From positions 1,795 to 65,794 of the forward strand of contig CANSRH010000008.1 of NCBI GenBank assembly GCA_947649365.1: 64,000 nucleotides of DNA. Direction: 5' to 3'. The notes under the pieces were generated by a model, which was not told where the DNA came from, did not search any database, and saw only the letters and a program-made list of their open reading frames with translations. This stretch comes from an uncultured Mycoplasmatota bacterium. GTDB taxonomy: Bacteria > Bacillota_I > Bacilli_A > RF39 > UBA660. The translations under genes were made by a program, and so were the position numbers. Shown in pieces: positions 7,155-38,852 of the stretch. The first letter of the stretch is position 1, and every line of letters starts with the position of its first letter.

Positions 7155-7610
7155 ATGGTAGTCTGTATGGGTGTGAAAAATAATAGAGGTTTTACTTTGG
7201 TTGAATTATTAGCAGTTATTGTTATATTGGCAGTTATTATTTTGATAGCTTCTAATAATGTGGGAAGTATTATGATTGATGCTCGTAAAAATGCTTTGGC
7301 TTTGGAAGGAAGTACATTGATTGATGCTGCTAAAACTGCTTATCAGATTGATATTTTGAATGATGGTATTACAGGCTCAAAATGTTATAATTTAGAAGAA
7401 TTATACAAAGAGGGATATTTTAGTAAAGGAAAAGATAAAGACGGATATACTGGAAGTGTACTTGTTGATACTAGCAACGAAAAAATTATTGAATATACGT
7501 TTTGGATTAGTAATGGGAAATATGTAGTTAGTGGTCCAGCAGGTACGACAGGAAAAAATGCCACTGCAGGAACGGAAGCATCTAAGTGTTGTGGTGGAAC
7601 TTGTTCTTAA
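7155..7610 (+). CDS. prepilin-type N-terminal cleavage/methylation domain protein (type IV pilin / ComGC-like pseudopilin)
   Basis: KNNRGFTLVELLAVIVILAVIIL is a class III signal with a G|FTLVE prepilin peptidase site. Start may be the ATG at 7167. The C-terminus ends in a Cys-rich tail (KCCGGTCS). Confidence 0.75.
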   Translation: MVVCMGVKNNRGFTLVELLAVIVILAVIILIASNNVGSIMIDARKNALALEGSTLIDAAKTAYQIDILNDGITGSKCYNLEELYKEGYFSKGKDKDGYTGSVLVDTSNEKIIEYTFWISNGKYVVSGPAGTTGKNATAGTEASKCCGGTCS

Positions 7611-13961: not shown

Positions 13962-14173
13962 ACAAGAATTTAATTTACTGTGTTTAACAGTTATTACTAA
14001 ATTTTGCTACATGCTTCATGCTACATAATAAGGGTAATACTATACCTTATTATGGCGAAGACTTAAGTGGCTACGCCCCTAAATCTCGCTTTTATAAATA
14101 GATATTCTTATACTGAGTAATGTCATAGTATTTTTTAAATATTTAAAATTAATACTTTAAAAGAGTTCTAAAA

Positions 14174-25597: not shown

Positions 25598-25911
25598 TTT
25601 TTCTTTTTTTCTATTCTTTCGACATGAATTGACAAAATGGTACATTGTATTCATGAAATGACAGTCTTTTTTCTTTTTATTATACTTTATATTAGTAGAG
25701 AGAATAGATAGGACGTTTCCATCGTTTCATGATTTTTATAGAAACAACGTTGTTCTTTTTACAGCATTGTTTTGTGAGATAATAAAGTAGTAACTGTTTC
25801 AAAGTAGTTGGTTTCTTTGGAATACAGTTTTTTATTTTGGATGTTCCATTCATTATTTAAAAAAAAGCAGTACATTTTTTGTATTGCTTTTCTTTTTGGG
25901 GAGGAATTTTT

Positions 25912-26271
25912 ATGAGTCAAATTTATGAGAAATATGTGGCTTTAAAAGAGAAGAATAAAGAATTAATGTATTTGTTTCGAAGTGGAAATTTCTATATCTT
26001 TTTAGGGGAGGATGCAGAAAAAATTAACGAATACGTGGTTTTAAAAAAGACTCAGTTTTGTAAAGAAGCTTTGAAGTGTGGATTTCCAGTTTCAAGTTTG
26101 GATGCTTATCTTCGTATTTTTCAAAATCATGGATTGGATGTGAAAGTAGTAGAAAAAGAACTTGTTTCTTGTGAAAAGTTAATTGAATCTTTACGCAAAT
26201 TGGATTTGGATCATACGACTCCTATTCGAGCATTAAATATTTTGAAGGAATTAAAGGAATCATTAAAATAA
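25912..26271 (+). CDS. standalone MutS domain I-like mini protein (about 119 aa)
   Basis: ATG at 25912 after GGGGAGG. YEKYVALKEKNKELMYLFRSGNFYIFLGEDAEKI parallels the MutS N-terminal mismatch-binding domain (QQY..IK..HPD.LLFFR.GDFYELFYEDA). The C-terminal TPIRALNILKEL resembles the MutS C-terminal tail. Confidence 0.45.
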   Translation: MSQIYEKYVALKEKNKELMYLFRSGNFYIFLGEDAEKINEYVVLKKTQFCKEALKCGFPVSSLDAYLRIFQNHGLDVKVVEKELVSCEKLIESLRKLDLDHTTPIRALNILKELKESLK

Positions 26272-27158: not shown

Positions 27159-28118
27159 ATGGCCGTTGTTTCTATGAGTTATTTATTAGAAGCAGGAGTT
27201 CATTTTGGACATCAAACAAAAAGATGGAATCCAAAAATGAAACAATACATTTTTGCTGCAAGAGATGAAATTCATATTATTGATTTGTCAAAAACAGCAG
27301 AAAAATTAGAGGAAGGATACCAAGCAATTAAAACAATTGCAGATAATGGTGGAACATTCTTGTTTGTTGGTACGAAAAAACAAGCAAGTGAAGTTTGTAA
27401 AGAAGAAGCCATCCGTAGTAACAGTTACTATGTAACTGAAAGATGGTTGGGTGGTACTCTTACTAATTTTAGAACTATTAGAAGAAGAGTAAAACGTTTA
27501 GAAGAAATCGAAGCGATGGAATCCAATGGAGTATTTGAAGTACTTCCTAAAAAAGAAGTGATTGGACTTCGTAAAGAATATGAAAAATTGAATCGTGTGC
27601 TATGTGGAATTCGTGAAATGAATAAATTGCCACAAGCAGTGATTATTGTAGATCCTAAAAAAGAAATTAATGCAATTCGTGAAGCAAGAAAGTTAAATAT
27701 TCCAGTATTTGGTCTTGTAGATACAAATTGTGATCCAGATGATGTAGATTACGTTATTCCAGCAAATGATGATGCAGTGAGAGCTGTTAAAGTTGTTATT
27801 GGTGTTTTAAATAATGCTATTTGTGAATCACGTAATTTAGAAATGGTTGATTATGTTACAGAAGAAGATAAAAATAAAAAAGAATTTAACCAAGAAGTGG
27901 TAGAAAAATCTCCTAAAAAAGAAGAAGTACCTGTTGTTGAAACAACGAAAGAAGAAATTTCTGTAAAAGAAGAAACTGTTTTGGAAGAACAACCAGTAGA
28001 AGCTTCTACTGATTATAGTAAAATGACTTTGACAGAATTAAAAGCAATTGCTAAAGAACAAGGTGTTAAAGGTTATAGTGCAATGAAAAAAGATGAATTG
28101 ATTGCAAATTTAAAATAA
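27159..28118 (+). CDS. rpsB: 30S ribosomal protein S2 with C-terminal extension carrying a Rho_N-like helical motif
   Basis: N-terminal [19 protein letters not shown] is the S2 signature. The protein is 319 aa against about 250 typical. The last 30 aa ([31 protein letters not shown]) match the Rho N-terminal/SAP-like motif. Confidence 0.85.
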
Positions 28119-28142
28119 ATTTTAGGAAAAGGAGTGTGTGTT

Positions 28143-29024
28143 ATGGAAATTAGTGCAAGTATGGTTCGTGATTTACGTGAAGCTAGTGGAGCAGGTATGA
28201 TGGATTGCAAAAAGGCTTTGTCTGAATGCAATGGCGATATGGAAGCTGCTATGGATTATTTGCGTGAAAAAGGAATTGCGAAAGCAGAGAAAAAAGGAAG
28301 CCGTATTGCAGCAGAGGGACTCGCTAATATTTTTGTTGAAGGAAATAAAGCAGTGATTTTGGAAGTGAATTCTGAGACTGATTTTGTTAGTAAAAATGAA
28401 GAATTTACTACTATGATTGAAGTAATTGGTACTGCTATTTTGAAAAGCGATGTTACAACTTTAGAAGAAGCATTGCAAATTTCTTTAGAAGAAGGAACGA
28501 TTTCTGATTTAATTGTAGCTAAGACAGCTAAAATTGGTGAAAAGTTATCTTTGAGAAGAATAGAAGTTGTTCTAAAAGAGAACGATGAAGTATTTGGTTC
28601 TTATTTACACATGGGTGGTAAAATTGCGGTACTCTCTGTTTTAAAGGGTGCAAATGAAGCTGTTGCAAAGGATGTTTCTATGCAATCTGCTGCTATGAAA
28701 CCAAGTTATGTTTTTACAAGTGACGTTCCAGAGGATGTTGTTCTTCGTGAACGCGAAGTGTTGAAAGAACAAGCTATGAATGAGGGAAAACCAGCAGATA
28801 TTGCTGAAAAAATGGTAGAAGGAAGATTGAATAAATTTTATAAAGAAATCTGCCTTGCTGAACAAGCATTTATTAAAGATGGCGATGTTAGTGTATCCAC
28901 TTATGTAAAAAATAATGGTGGAGAAATTAAATCTATGATTCGTTATGAAGTTGGTGAAGGAATGGAACATAGAAGTGACAACTTTGCTGAGGAAGTTATG
29001 AATCAAGTAAATGGAACGAATTAA
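28143..29024 (+). CDS. tsf: translation elongation factor Ts
   Basis: EISASMVRDLREASGAGMMDCKKAL is the UBA-like N-terminus of EF-Ts. ATG at 28143 after AAGGAG. Confidence 0.85.
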   Translation: MEISASMVRDLREASGAGMMDCKKALSECNGDMEAAMDYLREKGIAKAEKKGSRIAAEGLANIFVEGNKAVILEVNSETDFVSKNEEFTTMIEVIGTAILKSDVTTLEEALQISLEEGTISDLIVAKTAKIGEKLSLRRIEVVLKENDEVFGSYLHMGGKIAVLSVLKGANEAVAKDVSMQSAAMKPSYVFTSDVPEDVVLREREVLKEQAMNEGKPADIAEKMVEGRLNKFYKEICLAEQAFIKDGDVSVSTYVKNNGGEIKSMIRYEVGEGMEHRSDNFAEEVMNQVNGTN

Positions 29025-29037
29025 TTCCTAGTTAGAA

Positions 29038-29070
29038 TGTCAATGAGAATCACTCATTGGCATTTTTTTG
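29038..29070 (+). terminator. rho-independent terminator of tsf (UGUCAAUGAG-AAUCA-CUCAUUGGCA + U-run)
   Basis: 10-bp stem with one G-U pair followed by TTTTTTT at 29064-29070. Confidence 0.6.
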
Positions 29071-29127
29071 ATTGAAATAAAATTAAATGTAAGATAAAAT
29101 TGTAATAGAAAATAGAGGAGAGATGAA

Positions 29128-30430
29128 ATGAAAAAAGAAAAGAAAATCCTCCCAACCAGTCGAATTCGTCTGGGGGGGGGGTATATTAAGTAAACCAGAA
29201 GGATTAGAAAGGTTTAGTAAAAACAAAAGAAACAAGAAAGTAGTACTTGGTTCTATATTAGGGATATTCATAGTACTAGGAAGTATAACACTATACAAAA
29301 CATTTGCTTTATATAAAGAAGAAAAGACATTTAATGTAATTAGAGGTCAAGTCCCAGAATTTCAAAGGATGGATATAGAACTACTATCATTTACATTGGA
29401 TGGAAAGAATATAGAAACAGCGCCAAGTAAGGGAGCGTATGATGTAAGTATAACATGTAACAATGGAGCAGAAGGATATTGGGATTATGAAGAATGGGGA
29501 GTAGAAATAAAAAACATAACCAAGCAAACAAAATGTAATATAACATTTACTACAGGGAAATATTTTAGTGAGTATATAAAAGATATAAGTAAGAGTAGTA
29601 GTAATGTAGTAAAGGTAAGTCATGAAAAAACAGAACAGACCCCAGCATTAGAAGATTATCGATATGTTGGATCTAACCCAGATAATTATGTCTATTTTGG
29701 ATGTAGTGAGAATTGTACGGATGATAATTTATATCGAGTGATTGGAGTCATCCCAACCCAAAGTACTATGGATGGAGAATATGAAAATCGAGTAAAACTG
29801 GTTAAAGATAAGTATTATACAGAAAATGAAACTGGATATCTAGAGAATGAAAATAGATATGAATACAATAGAGATACAGGGAGCAATAGTTGGTCAGAAA
29901 GTCCAATAAATAAAAAAGTATTAAATGACATATTTTGGAATTCTTTAGGAGAATATCAAGGGTATATAGAGCAAGCCAAATGGTATTTGGGAGCTCCACT
30001 TGGTGATGATGCTTCGATTTATACTTCAGACAACTTATACAATTTAGAAAGAAGTACAATTAGAGGAAAAAGTGGTGGAGCAATATCCTATATAAATAAT
30101 ATAGGATTAATACATCCAAGTGATTTTGGTTTTACAGTAGAAAGTAAGTATAGAGATAAGAGTATTAATGCCAATCTAGAAATATTTACAAAATCTTGGA
30201 TGACTCGAGGTAAAATGACTATATCACCGGAATCTCATCTAGCTGCTACAGGCCAATATGGTACAATTCATTGGATAATATCAGGATCAAAAAGTGAATT
30301 TTTAAATTGCCATCATACAAAAGGAGGATCTGGTTCTTATATATATCCTACTTTTTATCTAAGTGCTGATGTACAATATAAAAATGGGGATGGAACAAGA
30401 GAAAATCCTTATTGCATAAAAAAAGATTAG
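29128..30430 (+). CDS. phase-variable (currently OFF) membrane-anchored protein; G10 tract at 29172-29181 separates the RBS/ATG/anchor from the 353-aa body (ORF 29369..30430)
   Basis: GAGGAG RBS and ATG at 29128 (frame 1) read MKKEKKILPTSRIRLGGGYIK* through G10. Frame 2 is open from 29132 through 30430 and contains the TM helix VVLGSILGIFIVLGSITLY. One G fewer fuses the two. The internal ATG at 29369 has no usable RBS. Confidence 0.6.
29172..29181. repeat. poly(G)10 homopolymeric tract (slipped-strand mispairing site)
   Basis: The only homopolymeric G/C run of 8 or more in a roughly 30% GC window. Located in the 5' coding region. Confidence 0.8.
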
Positions 30431-30497
30431 ACATTTTCTTTACAAATGTCTTTTTTTCTGCTAGGAAAGCAGTTGTGTTCTTGCTATACTTGTTTTA

Positions 30498-31100
30498 GTG
30501 ATTAATATGAAAAAAGTGAAATTAAAAAATGTTCTTCAATTCCTTTTGTTTCTTGTTATGATTTATTTTTTTATTATTTTAGGTACAAAGGATTTTCAAA
30601 CTAGAGTAGCAGACAATGTCCGTTTTTCTAATGATTATAAAGATATTTCTAAGAATAATGTTTATAAATATATGGGAGAGTATGAAATTTTGGATCTATT
30701 TAATGGCAAATCTGGAATTGTTTTTTTTGGATTTCCAGGAAATATTTGGAGTCATTATTATGCGGATTATTTAAATGAGGTAGCTATTTTGAATAAGATT
30801 GATACCATTTATTATTATGATTTTAGAAGAGATCGTTCTATGAATAATAAGGCTTATACGTATATCGTTAATCATTTGAAAGATTATTTGTCTCTTGATG
30901 ATTTGGGAAATATGGATATAAAAGCTCCTACTGTGATTATTTTAAAAGAGGGGAAAGTCATTTATTTTAATAATGAAATTGTTTTTTTAAAAGGTTTAAT
31001 TACTCCAGAGGAGTATTTTACAGATTTGAAGAAATTACAGTTGAAGAGTCGTTTTGATCAAGCGATTAAAGAGTATTTGAAGGAAGATATTCATGAATGA
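30498..31100 (+). CDS. hypothetical membrane-anchored protein (200 aa)
   Basis: N-terminal TM (LQFLLFLVMIYFFIILG) followed by a soluble domain (GIVFFGFPGNIWSHYY, possibly thioredoxin-fold-like but without CxxC). Confidence 0.4.
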   Translation: MINMKKVKLKNVLQFLLFLVMIYFFIILGTKDFQTRVADNVRFSNDYKDISKNNVYKYMGEYEILDLFNGKSGIVFFGFPGNIWSHYYADYLNEVAILNKIDTIYYYDFRRDRSMNNKAYTYIVNHLKDYLSLDDLGNMDIKAPTVIILKEGKVIYFNNEIVFLKGLITPEEYFTDLKKLQLKSRFDQAIKEYLKEDIHE

Positions 31101-31872
31101 GGAGACAAATAGTTATTTAGGTTTTGGCTATTTCTTTTTGTTTATTTTAGTTATTGTGGTTGTAGGTTCTTTTTTAGTGTATCAGGAGAAACACGAAAAA
31201 GTGAAAGAAGTTCAGGTTCCTATGATAGAAAATTCTGTAAGTGAAAATAAAAAATTAGATCGAACCAAGGATTTTATTTATTACGATAAAGAAGATTGGA
31301 TTGTAAAAGAATTGTCTCTTGCTTATAAGTATCCAGTTATTAATTTGGATAGTGAAGATGCAAGGAATGTTACAACTCGTCTTACAACTATGGTGAATCA
31401 AAAGAAATCTTCTTTGCTTCCCATGAGCGCTAAACCAGAAAGTGTAGAGTGTGCTTCTTCTTATGATATTTATCAAGCAGAAATTGTTGATTTTGATGTT
31501 TTTTCTTATCAAGATTATGTAACTCTTGTTGTTTATTCGTCTTTTTATTCTTGTGATTCAGGTATTTCTTCTATTTTAGAGATGCAATCGTATCCTTTTT
31601 CTATTACTACAGGAGAGCGTGTATCTTATGAGCAGCTTTTGAAAACCTATCGTACTACGTTTTCAGAAGTAACATTATTGATTCGCGATGCTTTGATGGA
31701 AAGTCAAACCTATGTAGATGGTGTGCCCTATATTCAAATTGATGAAACGATTTCTTTATTGGAAGAGAATAAGAATTATATTCTTTTTGTGGATGAGAAT
31801 GGAGAACTTGTTGTGAAATATATTGTCAAAACGAATGGTGTCGATTATAATGATACTATAAGTATAAGTTGA
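31093..31872 (+). CDS. hypothetical membrane-anchored protein (259 aa)
   Basis: N-terminal TM (YFFLFILVIVVVGSFLV) then an extracytoplasmic domain. Overlaps the upstream stop, suggesting an operon. Confidence 0.4.
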   Translation: MNEETNSYLGFGYFFLFILVIVVVGSFLVYQEKHEKVKEVQVPMIENSVSENKKLDRTKDFIYYDKEDWIVKELSLAYKYPVINLDSEDARNVTTRLTTMVNQKKSSLLPMSAKPESVECASSYDIYQAEIVDFDVFSYQDYVTLVVYSSFYSCDSGISSILEMQSYPFSITTGERVSYEQLLKTYRTTFSEVTLLIRDALMESQTYVDGVPYIQIDETISLLEENKNYILFVDENGELVVKYIVKTNGVDYNDTISIS

Positions 31873-31888
31873 AAATGAGGAGGAAATA

Positions 31889-32416
31889 ATGAATATCGAA
31901 CAAAAAATGGAAAAAGCAATTGTAGCTTTAGAAAATAAATTAATTAATATTCGGGCAGGAAGAGCTAATCCTGCTATGTTAAATGGAATTATGGTTTCTT
32001 ACTATGGATCGATGTCTCCAATTCAAAGCCTTGCTAATATTACGGTTCCTGAGGCAAGACAATTGATGATAAAACCATTTGATCGTAGTACTTTAAAGGA
32101 TATTGAAAGAGCCATCAATGAAGCAAATATTGGAATTACTCCAACGAATAATGGAGAAATTATTATTTTAACAGTTCCAGAGCTTACAGAGGATCGAAGA
32201 CGGGAATATGTTAAGCAAGCAAGAGATGTTGCAGAAGAGGCAAAAGTAGCTTTACGTAATATTCGTCAAGATGAAAATAATGCGATAAAAAAAGAAGAAT
32301 ATCCTGAAGATGAAGAAAAAATTCTTTTGAATGAAGTACAAGAAGCCATTAATAAGTACAATAAAATTGTAGAGGAGAAGCTAAAGGAAAAAGAAGAAGA
32401 ACTAATGCATGTTTAG
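31889..32416 (+). CDS. frr: ribosome recycling factor
   Basis: Typical RRF length (175 aa) and motifs (IRAGRANPAMLNGIMVSYYG, LTEDRRREYVKQ). Confidence 0.85.
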   Translation: MNIEQKMEKAIVALENKLINIRAGRANPAMLNGIMVSYYGSMSPIQSLANITVPEARQLMIKPFDRSTLKDIERAINEANIGITPTNNGEIIILTVPELTEDRRREYVKQARDVAEEAKVALRNIRQDENNAIKKEEYPEDEEKILLNEVQEAINKYNKIVEEKLKEKEEELMHV

Positions 32417-35519: not shown

Positions 35520-35735
35520 AAGAGTGAAAGACAGGGAACAAGAGAGTAAGTTGAAACTTATTGATAGAGAGTTCATGGTTGGTGGAAATGAATGATTGGT
35601 TTTTTCTGAAAATCACTTGGGAGTTGAAAGTCTGAAAAAAGTAAGATTTTCCGCAGGATTGCGTTATCAAAAATAAGTAAAAATGAAGGTGGTACCACGC
35701 ATTTTGCGTCCTTTTGGTAGCCACTTTTTTTGTTT
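35520..35735 (+). promoter_or_regulatory. T-box riboswitch leader (specifier AUC = Ile) with terminator/antiterminator
   Basis: AGAGA K-turn region. Candidate specifier AUC-A at 35612-35615. T-box sequence AATGAAGGTGGTACCACG at 35682-35699. Terminator hairpin plus T7 at 35724-35731. Confidence 0.7.
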
Positions 35736-35750
35736 TAGGAGGATATTTGT

Positions 35751-38700
35751 ATGAAAGATTTTAAGGAATTAGACAAACGAGCTGCAAGTGAAGTGGAACA
35801 AGATATTCTATCTTCTTGGGGCGGGATGATGTCTATTTTAAAGCGACAGAATGAATGGAGAAAAGATGCTCGCAATTTCGTGTTTTATGATGGCCCTGCA
35901 ACCGCCAATGGTTTTCCAGGACTTCATCATATGCTTGCTAAGTTTTTAAAGGATTCGTTTTGTAAGTATCATGTTATGAAAGGGGAACGTGTCATTCGTA
36001 AAGTGGGATGGGATACCCATGGACTTCCAGTAGAGCTTGGTGTAGAAAAAGAGTTAGGTTTTACAGGGAAAGGCGATATCGAAACGTATGGGATTGAAGC
36101 ATTTAATAAAAAGTGCAAAGAATCGGTTTGGAAAAATAAGGAAGCATTTACGGATTTAACAGAAAAGATGGGACAATTTATTGATATTCAAAATCCTTAT
36201 GTTACGTATGATAATGATTACATTGAAACAGAATGGTATATTTTAAAAGAATTTTTTAAACAAGGATTGTTTTATGAAGGACATAAAATTTTACCTTATT
36301 GTCCTCGTTGTGGAACTGGTCTTGCTAGTCATGAGGTTGCACAGGGTTATAAAGAAATTTCTGTTGATACCGTTATTGTTCCGATGAAGAAAAAGGGAGA
36401 AGATGTTTATTTTTTGGTATGGACTACCACTCCTTGGACTCTTATTTCTAATGTGGCTTTGTGTGTGAATCCAGAATTTACTTATGTAAAAGTGAAGAGT
36501 GGAGACTATCAATTTATTTTAGCTGAGAGTTTGGTTTCAAAGGTTTTAGGGGACGATGTAGAAGTATTGGAAACCTATAAGGGAAAAGATTTAGAATATA
36601 TGGAGTACGAACAATTGATTCCGGAATTGTCTGTTTCCAAAAAAGCTTTTTTTGTTACTTGTGATTCTTATGTAACGGCTTCTGATGGAACAGGAATTGT
36701 TCATATCGCTCCTGCTTTTGGAGAAGATGACGCGAGTGTGGGACGTAAATACGATTTGCCTTTCTTAAACCCAGTTGGAGAAGATGGACATTATACAGAA
36801 GGTCCTTGGAAGGGCATGCTTATTTTTGATGCGGACCTAGAAGTAATTAAGTATTTGAAAGAACAGGATAAATTGTTTAAAAAACAAAAAATGATTCATA
36901 ACTATCCTCATTGCTGGAGATGCGATTCCCCACTTGTTTATTATTCAAAACCTTCTTATTATTTAAAAGTGACAGAAATAAAGGATAAAATTATTGAAGC
37001 TAATAAAAAGGTAAATTGGTTTCCTAATTATGTTGGAGAAAAGCGTTTTGGAAATTGGCTTTTGAATATGAATGATTGGGCTATTTCTAGAAGTCGATAT
37101 TGGGGTACACCTTTGCCTTATTGGATTTGTTCTTGTGGCCATGATGAGATGATTGGTTCTAGAAAAGAACTGGTAGAGCGTGCGATCGAGAAAATTGATG
37201 AAAGTATTGATTTGCATCGACCTTTTGTGGATGAAGTGCATCTTACTTGTCCAGAATGTGGCGGTGTGATGAGTCGGTGCAAAGATGTAATTGATTGTTG
37301 GTTTGATTCAGGTTCGATGCCTTTTGCTCAATACCATTATCCCTTTGAGAATGAAGAACTTTTTGAAAGCCAATTTCCAGCTGATTTTATCTGTGAGGGA
37401 ATTGACCAAACAAGAGGTTGGTTTTATACTTTGCTTATTATTTCAGTATTTTTAAAAGGAGTGGCTCCTTACAAAAATGTTTTGGTGAATGATTTGATTC
37501 AGGATGCAGAAGGAAAGAAAATGAGTAAGTCCAAAGGCAATATTGTAGAACCATTTACTACAATGAAAGAGTATGGCGCTGATGTAGTTCGTTTTTATCT
37601 TCCTTATGTCTCTCCTGTGTGGACTCCGTTACGTTTTGATATGAATGGTTTAAAAGAGGTGCATTCGAAATTTTTTAATCCTCTTAAGAATACGTATACT
37701 TTCTTTCAAATGTATGCGAATACAGATAAAATAGATATTTCGGATTGCGATGTTCCTTATGAGAAACGAGAAGAAATTGATAAATGGTTGTTATCTAAAT
37801 ACAACAAGTTATTAGAGTTCGTTACATCGTCTTATGAAGAATACGATTTAAATAAAGTGGTTCGTGCTGTAACAGAGTTTGTTAGTGAAGATTTATCGAA
37901 CTGGTACATTAGACGTAATCGTAAACGTTTTTGGTCTTCTGTTTTCGATGATTCTAAAAAAGCTGTTTATAAGACAACGTACGAAGTTTTGGAAGGATTG
38001 TGTCGTATGATGGCTCCAATTATTCCATTCACAACTGAAGAAATCTATACGAAATTAACAGGAAAAGAATCGGTTCATTTAAGTGATTTTCCAAAAGTGA
38101 ATGCATCTTTCATTCATGAAGAAATTGAAGAACGTATGGATTTGGTAAGAGATTTAATTCGAATTGGACGTTTTGTTCGAGAAGAGGCAAAAATTAAGGT
38201 AAGACAACCACTTAGTGAAGCACTTATTGATGGGACAAATAGAGAATTAATTCAAGATTTGCTTCCTTTAATTGAAGAAGAGTTAAATGTAAAACAAGTT
38301 GTGTTTGTGGATGATCTTTCTTCTTATATGAATTTTACTTTGAAGCCTAATTTTAAAGTTGTTGGAAAGTTGTTTGGTTCAAAAGTAAAAGAATTCCAAA
38401 CAAAATTGGAAACGTTAATTGAAGAAGACATTACAAAATTAAATAACGATGAAACTATAAAGATGGATTTAAGTGGAGAAGCGCATGAAATTACCAAAGA
38501 GTGTGTGGATATTCGTATAGAATCCAAAGAAGGTTTCAATGTGGGAATGGAAAATAATCATTTTATTATTTTAAATACAGAACTTACAGAAGAATTGATT
38601 CTTGAGGGAATTGCTCGTGAATTTGTGTCAAAGGTACAAAATCTACGTAAGACCAAGGATTATAATGTAGTGGATCGCATTCGTATTTCTGTTTCAGGTG

Positions 38701-38852
38701 ATGAAGCATTTAAAAAATCTTTGGAATTGTTTGCTTCCTATATTAAGGAAGAAACTCTTGCGCTACAAATCGAAGAGATGGGGAATTTAAAAGAGTCTTA
38801 TGATTTGAATGGACATGAGGTATTTATAGAAATTGAAAAAGTGACTCAGTAA
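35751..38852 (+). CDS. ileS: isoleucyl-tRNA synthetase, type 2 (eukaryote/archaeal-like, about 1030 aa)
   Basis: FVFYDGPATANGFPGLHHML (HIGH-class motif), GWDTHGLP, KMSKSKGN. Length and N-terminus fit type-2 IleRS rather than ValS. Confidence 0.75.
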   Translation: MKDFKELDKRAASEVEQDILSSWGGMMSILKRQNEWRKDARNFVFYDGPATANGFPGLHHMLAKFLKDSFCKYHVMKGERVIRKVGWDTHGLPVELGVEKELGFTGKGDIETYGIEAFNKKCKESVWKNKEAFTDLTEKMGQFIDIQNPYVTYDNDYIETEWYILKEFFKQGLFYEGHKILPYCPRCGTGLASHEVAQGYKEISVDTVIVPMKKKGEDVYFLVWTTTPWTLISNVALCVNPEFTYVKVKSGDYQFILAESLVSKVLGDDVEVLETYKGKDLEYMEYEQLIPELSVSKKAFFVTCDSYVTASDGTGIVHIAPAFGEDDASVGRKYDLPFLNPVGEDGHYTEGPWKGMLIFDADLEVIKYLKEQDKLFKKQKMIHNYPHCWRCDSPLVYYSKPSYYLKVTEIKDKIIEANKKVNWFPNYVGEKRFGNWLLNMNDWAISRSRYWGTPLPYWICSCGHDEMIGSRKELVERAIEKIDESIDLHRPFVDEVHLTCPECGGVMSRCKDVIDCWFDSGSMPFAQYHYPFENEELFESQFPADFICEGIDQTRGWFYTLLIISVFLKGVAPYKNVLVNDLIQDAEGKKMSKSKGNIVEPFTTMKEYGADVVRFYLPYVSPVWTPLRFDMNGLKEVHSKFFNPLKNTYTFFQMYANTDKIDISDCDVPYEKREEIDKWLLSKYNKLLEFVTSSYEEYDLNKVVRAVTEFVSEDLSNWYIRRNRKRFWSSVFDDSKKAVYKTTYEVLEGLCRMMAPIIPFTTEEIYTKLTGKESVHLSDFPKVNASFIHEEIEERMDLVRDLIRIGRFVREEAKIKVRQPLSEALIDGTNRELIQDLLPLIEEELNVKQVVFVDDLSSYMNFTLKPNFKVVGKLFGSKVKEFQTKLETLIEEDITKLNNDETIKMDLSGEAHEITKECVDIRIESKEGFNVGMENNHFIILNTELTEELILEGIAREFVSKVQNLRKTKDYNVVDRIRISVSGDEAFKKSLELFASYIKEETLALQIEEMGNLKESYDLNGHEVFIEIEKVTQ

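Follow-up and report, generated by a model that had tools for sequence, protein, structure and literature searches.

The gene analyzed here is located in a 64-kb stretch of contig CANSRH010000008.1 from an uncultured Mycoplasmatota bacterium (hereinafter, the window) and contains a run of ten G residues (G10) in its short 5' coding leader. It probably encodes a membrane-anchored, lectin-like surface protein whose expression is turned ON and OFF reversibly by changes in the length of this poly-G run. It forms a self-contained unit between tsf and frr, where it is inserted; the order across positions 27159-32416 is rpsB, tsf, the G10 gene, two small membrane-protein open reading frames (ORFs) and frr. 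The tsf ORF ends at 29024, and downstream of it the G10 gene appears to possess a complete set of expression signals of its own, including a Shine-Dalgarno (SD) sequence (Table 1).

Table 1. Features of the G10 gene in the window, and placements of G runs (A to E) in related loci
Feature	Position or loci	Strand	Basis
Intrinsic-terminator-like hairpin with T run, closing the upstream rpsB-tsf unit	29034..29066	+	terminator scan
Putative own sigma-70-like promoter, TTGAAA-17 nt-TAAAAT	29072..29100	+	promoter scan, 10/12 matches; consensus match only
SD sequence GAGGAG, 7 nt ahead of ATG 29128	29115..29120	+	sequence
Leader frame at G10: 21 codons (MKKEKKILPTSRIRLGGGYIK), then TAA 29191-29193	29128..29193	+	sequence
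Body frame, 432 codons open; joins ATG 29128 at G9 or G12 to give 433 aa	29132..30430	+	sequence, homologues
Predicted mRNA hairpin, 5' arm CCUCCC (29148-29153) paired with the last six G's	29148..29181	+	RNA folding
G10 homopolymer, proposed switch	29172..29181	+	sequence
Hydrophobic helix VVLGSILGIFIVLGSITLY, a signal anchor or long signal peptide, with a basic stretch ahead of it	29240..29296	+	sequence, AlphaFold2, conserved in family
Small all-beta domain, residues 83-142, two conserved cysteines	29375..29554	+	AlphaFold2 secondary structure
Alpha/beta ectodomain of ~290 aa, expanded C-type-lectin-like fold	29564..30427	+	predicted structure
Terminator-like hairpin 3' of the gene	30458..30472	+	terminator scan
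Placement A: after a ~15-codon leader, as in the window	L003 (two), L006, L009, L015 (three), L016, L018, L102		
Placement B: within the anchor helix	L008, L028, L030, L049		
Placement C: end of the anchor helix	L031, L041, L053, L065		
Placement D: between promoter TTGACA and TATAAT	L021 (G9, 17-nt spacer); L045, L047, L059, L075 (19-21 nt)		
Placement E: 7 codons past the ATG, or fused to the ATG	L086, L099		

Direct reading of the locus and recomputation of the translations bear out the preliminary description, which had noted the SD sequence 7 nucleotides (nt) ahead of ATG 29128, a stop 21 codons later next to the G10 run, an adjacent frame open to 30430, and the joining of the two frames into a protein of about 433 amino acids (aa) upon loss of one G or gain of two. 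G9 or G12 yields a single 433-aa product of about 48 kDa that terminates at the body-frame stop codon 30428-30430, the predicted trans-frame junction peptide being ..SRIRLGGGILSK..; with G8, G10 or G11, there is no such product, and translation ends 2-4 codons past the run. The other five frames of the same stretch contain 18-48 stops, with the longest open stretches of 29-86 codons. The annotated ORF starts at an internal ATG (29369) that, as had been remarked, is abutted by AAAGG without any spacer (the sequence reads CAAAGG), and the body frame contains no ATG, GTG or TTG between 29132 and 29369. The run had also been singled out as the sole G/C homopolymer of 8 or more in a window of about 30% GC, and this is the case: the GC content is 30.5%, the next longest G/C run in the 64 kb is one G6, so that G10 is the only run longer than 6, and the expected number of runs of G>=10 per window, assuming independent and identically distributed nucleotides, is 0.004.

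An AlphaFold2 model of the fused product, built on 22 family sequences, has a predicted local distance difference test score (pLDDT) of 81.7. Residues 33-61 are modeled as one helix, in agreement with the earlier assignment of a signal-anchor helix ahead of the annotated ORF; the basic stretch KNKRNKK lies directly N-terminal of VVLGSILGIFIVLGSITLY. In the all-beta domain, the cysteines C110 and C136 are nearly invariant in the family alignment. The ~290-residue alpha/beta domain, mostly modeled with a pLDDT above 90, shows a significant structural match over the domain core to the C-type-lectin-like fold, specifically of the type found in the N-terminal domain of an immunoglobulin A (IgA) protease. 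This is a ligand-binding type of fold that is in use on bacterial surfaces (PMC12237041). Searches of Pfam and NCBIfam with the protein, and of Rfam and PDB sequences with the gene and the leader, produce no matches, nor does the family profile detect any PDB chain at E<=1. The earlier statement that the body has no recognizable domain is correct as far as Pfam and NCBIfam are concerned; by its fold, however, the body is recognizable as lectin-like. The protein lacks a lipobox cysteine (there is no Cys in residues 1-109 of the fused product), and a Tandem Repeats Finder search for a repetitive extracellular region gives only three weak 2-copy repeats in 29000-30500. Judging from the model, the body appears to be a lectin-like ligand-binding fold carried on an N-terminal anchor; the combination of a basic tail, a single hydrophobic helix, and the beta and lectin-like domains predicts exposure of the product on the cell surface.

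The family to which this protein belongs is large and is not represented by a Pfam model. A word-indexed search identifies 72 homologues, many of which span the N-terminal tail and the helix, and a profile search retrieves 6,610 representative clusters at E<=1e-3 and 964 at E<=1e-30. A scan with one genome per species found more than 527 loci of relatives, of which the best-matching 80 (523 kb) were inspected; related loci are denoted by L numbers. The source of all 80 is metagenome bins from the gut of humans, mice, rabbits or chickens, and the bins are labeled mostly as uncultured Tenericutes or Bacilli, with four Muribaculaceae and one Clostridium. There are several family loci per metagenome-assembled genome (MAG), and the members of tandem arrays are always co-oriented. 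Within the window, tblastn detects no paralogue of the gene. A phage origin was considered and rejected, as no relatives were found in viral contigs.

Runs of G>=7 number 27 across the 523 kb, with the lengths G10 (18 cases), G9 (five), G8 (one), G11 (one) and G7 (two), whereas runs of C>=7 are lacking altogether. Each of the 25 runs of G>=8 is on the coding strand and marks the 5' end of a family gene; 22 of these lie within +-250 nt of the N-terminal ends, a zone that accounts for 7% of the DNA (binomial P 6e-23), and the remaining three are found where copies with a longer N-terminal extension begin. Of the copies whose 5' end is visible, about 22/80 have a run, in at least five distinct placements (Table 1). 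The G7 run of L037, which is upstream of its own ATG, was grouped in D; its flanks resemble a placement B remnant, without a clear TTGACA. The leader of the window gene is conserved in relatives as both peptide and DNA (..K[KE][IN]LPT..SRLGGG), and the layout GGAGG-N7-9-ATG also recurs in homologous leaders.

The length of the run varies between close relatives. The L015 copies carry G8 and G10 in flanks that are 96% identical; the G9 copy L031 is in frame and its three sister copies with G10 are not, with L031 and the out-of-frame copies L053 and L065 found in one MAG; and L075 contrasts G11 with G9. The homologue P0069 (L084/L085) shares with the window gene the ribosome-binding site (RBS), the leader and the CCTCCC motif; in this homologue, however, other residues interrupt the run (GGAGAGAGGAG), and leader and anchor are fused in frame. 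P0069 is a natural locked-ON form, and the in-frame fusion of its leader confirms that the RBS-proximal ATG (29128 in the window) is the true start. Among the out-of-frame copies, at least 13 of 17 possess an uninterrupted body ORF of ~370-580 codons in DNA of ~30% GC and, therefore, are unlikely to be long-dead pseudogenes. The slipped-strand phase variation suggested in the preliminary description is, accordingly, supported comparatively: homologues from other genomes have runs of 7-11 specifically at their 5' ends, the run is not of the same length in paralogues that are otherwise nearly identical, there are in-frame G9 copies as well as interrupted, locked-ON ones, OFF copies mostly retain intact bodies, and the predicted ectodomain has a fold of a ligand-binding type.

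Under this interpretation, the hypermutable G run in the 5' coding leader would gate the expression of an outward-facing protein of 433 aa that consists of a basic N-terminal tail, an anchor helix, a beta domain and a C-type-lectin-like binding domain. At G10, ribosomes starting from the strong RBS and ATG 29128 would stop after 21 codons, and the anchored protein would not be produced (OFF); deletion of one G or addition of two through slipped-strand mispairing during replication would join the leader, the anchor and the body (ON). Given that such a change would be reversible, the population is proposed to hold a minority of ON cells, and with many run-bearing paralogues in the lineage, each cell is proposed to display a varying subset of these proteins. 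The run length presumably fluctuates in the population from which the window was assembled, and the variation might serve evasion of host IgA or of phages, or a change of ligand. The hallmarks of contingency loci are apparent: a homopolymer long enough to be hypermutable and far beyond the expectation from base composition (G10), a position in the 5' coding region where a change of +-1 unit would toggle expression, variation of length between conserved flanks in relatives (L015, L031 compared with L053/L065, and L075), and a gene that is otherwise intact when OFF (the 432-codon body).

Several observations weigh against a random switch. Among the coding runs, about 16/21 are G10 that need exactly -1 G (these include L003, L008, L009, L015, L016, L028, L030, L041, L049, L053, L065, L086 and L102), whereas more ON and more G8 states would be expected of a simple random switch. 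Contrasted with this set are L031, L006 and L015:463. Of the other coding runs, one is plainly in frame, one is G8 and one is a G9 needing +1; in the remaining two, L018 and L099, the run is G10 and the body frame is open through it from an atypical start. The window copy departs from the family consensus at 12/101 conserved columns, including W246Y, W363M and R406Y, which is at the high end of the family range of 1-18, and the family does include pseudogenes, namely, fragments in L019, L030 and L053, a frameshift outside any run in L100, a 13-nt deletion in L101 and a nonsense codon in L102. Exact-protein look-ups of P0001, P0002 and P0005 in search of second assemblies returned no record, and two metagenome DNA-pattern scans for the locus produced nothing relevant. 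In multi-sample look-ups, P0027 is run-less (21 contigs) and P0061 has an identical G10, with no length polymorphism of the same gene between samples. The predominance of G10 extends, however, to the promoter runs, which are mostly G10 as well, and to L102 despite its nonsense codon, so that G10 would seem to be a mutational mode and not a length maintained by selection. From the sequences compared, the ON state looks to be one step below this mode, with most copies OFF; leaky expression from G10, through slippage of the polymerase or the ribosome, is a less likely explanation of the skew. The 'M..WGGG' N-termini of P0008 and P0043, which could be taken for in-frame G10, were rejected as gene-caller GTG/TTG starts in the body frame.

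The G run is also predicted to form one arm of an mRNA hairpin. In the window, the inner stem of this hairpin, CCAG/CUGG, uses the first two G's of the run, and the minimum free energy of the RNA is -22.2 kcal/mol (z -2.3 to -5.1), compared with a much weaker -7.8 kcal/mol for the same hairpin as DNA. A hairpin of this kind recurs at each of the 14 loci with placement A or B, with CCUCCC or a C/U variant as the 5' arm 20-33 nt upstream of the run and the run itself as the 3' arm (z = -2.1 to -7.2 against shuffled upstream sequence), and is absent from placements C, D and E. The 5' arm varies between C and U only and employs CTC, a codon that makes up 1% of the Leu codons in the housekeeping genes of the window and none of the 25 in the gene body. 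It is plausible, as a conjecture, that the hairpin masks the SD-like G run in the mRNA. Two other readings were considered and discarded: the hairpin followed by UAUAUU is not called as an intrinsic terminator by the terminator scan, and internal initiation at an AUA past the run is not general, being absent in L003:626 and pointless for runs within the anchor helix.

It is unlikely that G10 is a selected functional state in which the out-of-frame run and the CCUCCC hairpin constitute a recoding device atop DNA-level switching; in such a device, the hairpin arms would mimic anti-SD and SD sequences, and slippage of RNA polymerase, or of the ribosome by +1 on GGG GGG GGG, would maintain a low or regulated level of the surface protein. 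Recoding from a fixed G10 without any change in the DNA, whereby the full protein would be made from G9 transcripts generated by RNA polymerase slippage or through a ribosomal +1 slip (a tRNA-Gly slip on GGG GGG GGG, aided by the SD-like G run and modulated by the CCUCCC hairpin), is also unlikely. The prevalence of G10 among the coding runs implies that the same shift is needed across species and placements, a +1 slip on GGG GGG re-pairs perfectly, and the RNA-specific hairpin with its rare CTC codon accompanies the run in every locus where the run resides in the leader or within the helix. A programmed +1 frameshift of the prfB type would call for a slippery site with a slow or stop codon immediately after it in the 0 frame and an SD-like stimulator a short distance upstream; in the window gene, GGG GGG GGG would allow perfect +1 re-pairing and is itself SD-like, but the next 0-frame codon is UAU and the stop comes four codons later. 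Against recoding, the 0-frame stop is 3-5 codons past the run, whereas that of prfB coincides with the shift site; the run length does vary among close paralogues (G8, G9, G10 and G11), including the in-frame G9 copy; G10 also dominates in promoters, where the frame is irrelevant, and persists in the copy with the nonsense codon; and the hairpin is missing from the helix-end, promoter-spacer and early-coding (L086, L099) runs. We know of no documented transcriptional slippage on G runs in bacteria. For A/T runs, bacterial transcriptional slippage is documented by Wagner et al. 1990, as cited in PMC1088944.

That the gene is a plain pseudogene, with a fixed frameshift and the G run merely marking the lesion in a decaying sequence, is improbable. 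The existence of pseudogenized family members, the divergence of the window copy at conserved positions and its presence as a single copy in the window would fit such decay. Nevertheless, the run is the sole defect in 1.3 kb, the body remains open over 432 codons in contrast to the short open stretches of the other frames, the gene retains an intact promoter, RBS, ATG, leader and terminator, and, unlike a random lesion, the same run is kept at the same place across species.

Equally, 10-nt homopolymers are error-prone and the locus is represented by a single assembly, so that the true sequence might be uniformly G9 and the gene intact; such an assembly or sequencing error is highly improbable. 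Inside long ORFs of the window, 15 A/T runs of 8 or more are all in frame, which implies that homopolymer indel errors are not a general problem of the contig, and out-of-frame G10 is found in about 15 loci from independent projects and assemblers, beside calls of G8, G9 and G11. Given that Campylobacter draft assemblies from Illumina reads call G9 more often than G10 (PMC6321876), there seems to be no systematic bias from G9 to G10. Even if the error were real, a G9 run at this position would remain a contingency tract.

The only reading with G10 in frame, a start at ATG 29123 in the body frame (ATG-AAA-TGA) with TGA 29129 decoded as Trp under genetic code 4, for which the 'Tenericutes' labels of the closest MAGs might speak, can be dismissed because TGA ends 11/52 long ORFs of the window, 86% of which is coding under table 11 with full-length housekeeping genes, as expected under the standard code, and because this ATG is just 2 nt past the SD sequence and cell-wall genes are present. 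The latter encode FtsQ, an L,D-transpeptidase and LytR, and indicate that the organism is a walled low-GC member of the Bacillota.

Slipped-strand phase variation thus being the preferred interpretation of the G10 run, the comparison of the relatives further suggests how the switch is distributed. The arrangement of leader, run and anchor also fronts a different ectodomain (L015:456-2040, L003:2063-3740), and the alternative ectodomains behind the same cassette have no match in Pfam. Conversely, among bodies of more than 90% identity, some are preceded by an N-terminal cassette with a run and others by one that lacks it (P0066 and P0204 compared with P0205; L099, L101). In view of these combinations, the 5' cassette consisting of the RBS, leader, G run and anchor helix behaves as an exchangeable module. 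Several MAG contigs start ~10-100 nt 5' of a run-bearing cassette (L018/L097/L098, with the run at nt 95-99; L075, nt 10; L009, nt 63), and repeated 5' cassettes may break short-read assemblies at these contig starts. In L101, an allele of the P0066/P0205 gene, the 13-nt deletion is located around position 860, involves no homopolymer change and truncates the product; the same locus contains an A9 run in the basic N-terminal tail (L101:751).

Among the characterized phase-variable systems, the closest resemblance is to the phasome of Campylobacter jejuni and C. coli, host-associated bacteria of ~30% GC in which G8-11 runs, mostly of 9-10, reside in the 5' parts of surface-related ORFs, one-unit changes toggle the frame, many loci are present per genome and run length varies between homologues; in these experimentally validated switches, the run lengths peak at 9 (53%) and 10 (26%) (PMC6321876). 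The runs described here differ in that they are concentrated in a single, huge family of paralogous genes for anchored lectin-like proteins and not in glycosyltransferase, flagellar or capsule genes, in that the mode is G10 with ON at G9, in that a CCUCCC hairpin accompanies two of the placements, and in that the host is an uncultured walled member of the Bacillota known from sequence alone. Variable surface proteins of Mycoplasma are controlled by a poly-A promoter spacer (Vlp), poly-A frameshifting (Vaa), GAA repeats (pMGA/VlhA) or TA repeats (Vmm). These systems are similar to the present one in being surface multigene families, in low-GC relatives of the Bacillota, in which simple repeats, located in the promoter spacer or the 5' coding region, switch each member separately; in contrast, the family described here does not consist of lipoproteins and has no tandem-repeat ectodomains, its runs are G rather than A, TA or GAA, and cell-wall genes are present. 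The promoter runs of the relatives, TTGACA-..G9-11..-TATAAT with spacers of 17-21 nt, resemble those of the Treponema pallidum tpr and tp0126 promoters and of Neisseria porA and opc, whereas the run of the window gene is in the coding leader. In T. pallidum, up to 8 G's are permissive and G10 is near background (PMC7864442).

With regard to the ectodomain, the N-terminal domain of the Thomasclavelia ramosa IgA protease (PDB 9QA6) is likewise an expanded C-type-lectin-like domain; unlike that enzyme, the protein analyzed here has no protease domain and no sequence match to any PDB chain, and is predicted to be anchored by an N-terminal helix rather than via a C-terminal sortase signal. The C-type-lectin fold is also shared with the variable proteins of diversity-generating retroelements (DGRs), such as TvpA, Mtd and TaqVP, but the diversity in the present case would stem from an ON/OFF choice among paralogues and not from mutagenic retrohoming. 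A DGR target was rejected since blastn detects no template repeat of the 3' end of the gene in the 64 kb, reverse transcriptase not having been searched for specifically.

Several other features of the window are worth recording. The two small membrane-protein ORFs between the G10 gene and frr (30498-31100 and 31093-31872) have no family match. There is no pyrH between tsf and frr in the window, the position that this gene occupies in many Bacillota. A stand-alone ORF of 130 aa (25879-26271, + strand) matches MutS domain I only (PF01624, E 2e-11), and the remaining MutS domains do not follow downstream; this ORF may be relevant to the mismatch-repair status of the organism and to homopolymer instability. 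A T-box leader (35525-35716, + strand, 121 bits) is located directly 5' of ileS (35751-38852), and an Rfam match to 'ssNA-helicase RNA' at 14005-14054 (- strand, 44.9 bits) is barely over the gathering score. The small protein encoded at 7155-7610 (+ strand) has the N-terminal methylation motif of prepilins (PF07963), which suggests that the organism possesses a system for competence or one resembling type IV pili.

In a few cultured pathogens, phase variation through homopolymers is a textbook phenomenon. Thus, the mechanism proposed for the G10 gene is well known, and what is new is the setting, a large unannotated family of anchored lectin-like proteins in uncultured gut Bacilli, along with the recruitment of G runs at several positions and the shared, exchangeable 5' switch cassette. 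In 'Tenericutes'/RF39-like gut MAGs, a very large lectin-like family appears to be under the control of this device, and the loci described here offer concrete sites at which switching in vivo can be measured from existing metagenome read pile-ups. If the switch is confirmed, many 'truncated' or 'frameshifted' gene calls in these MAGs would be switches, not errors or pseudogenes, and the ~290-aa domain shared with the IgA protease N-terminal domain would be a candidate module for interaction with the host or with phages. These commensals would then vary their surface stochastically.

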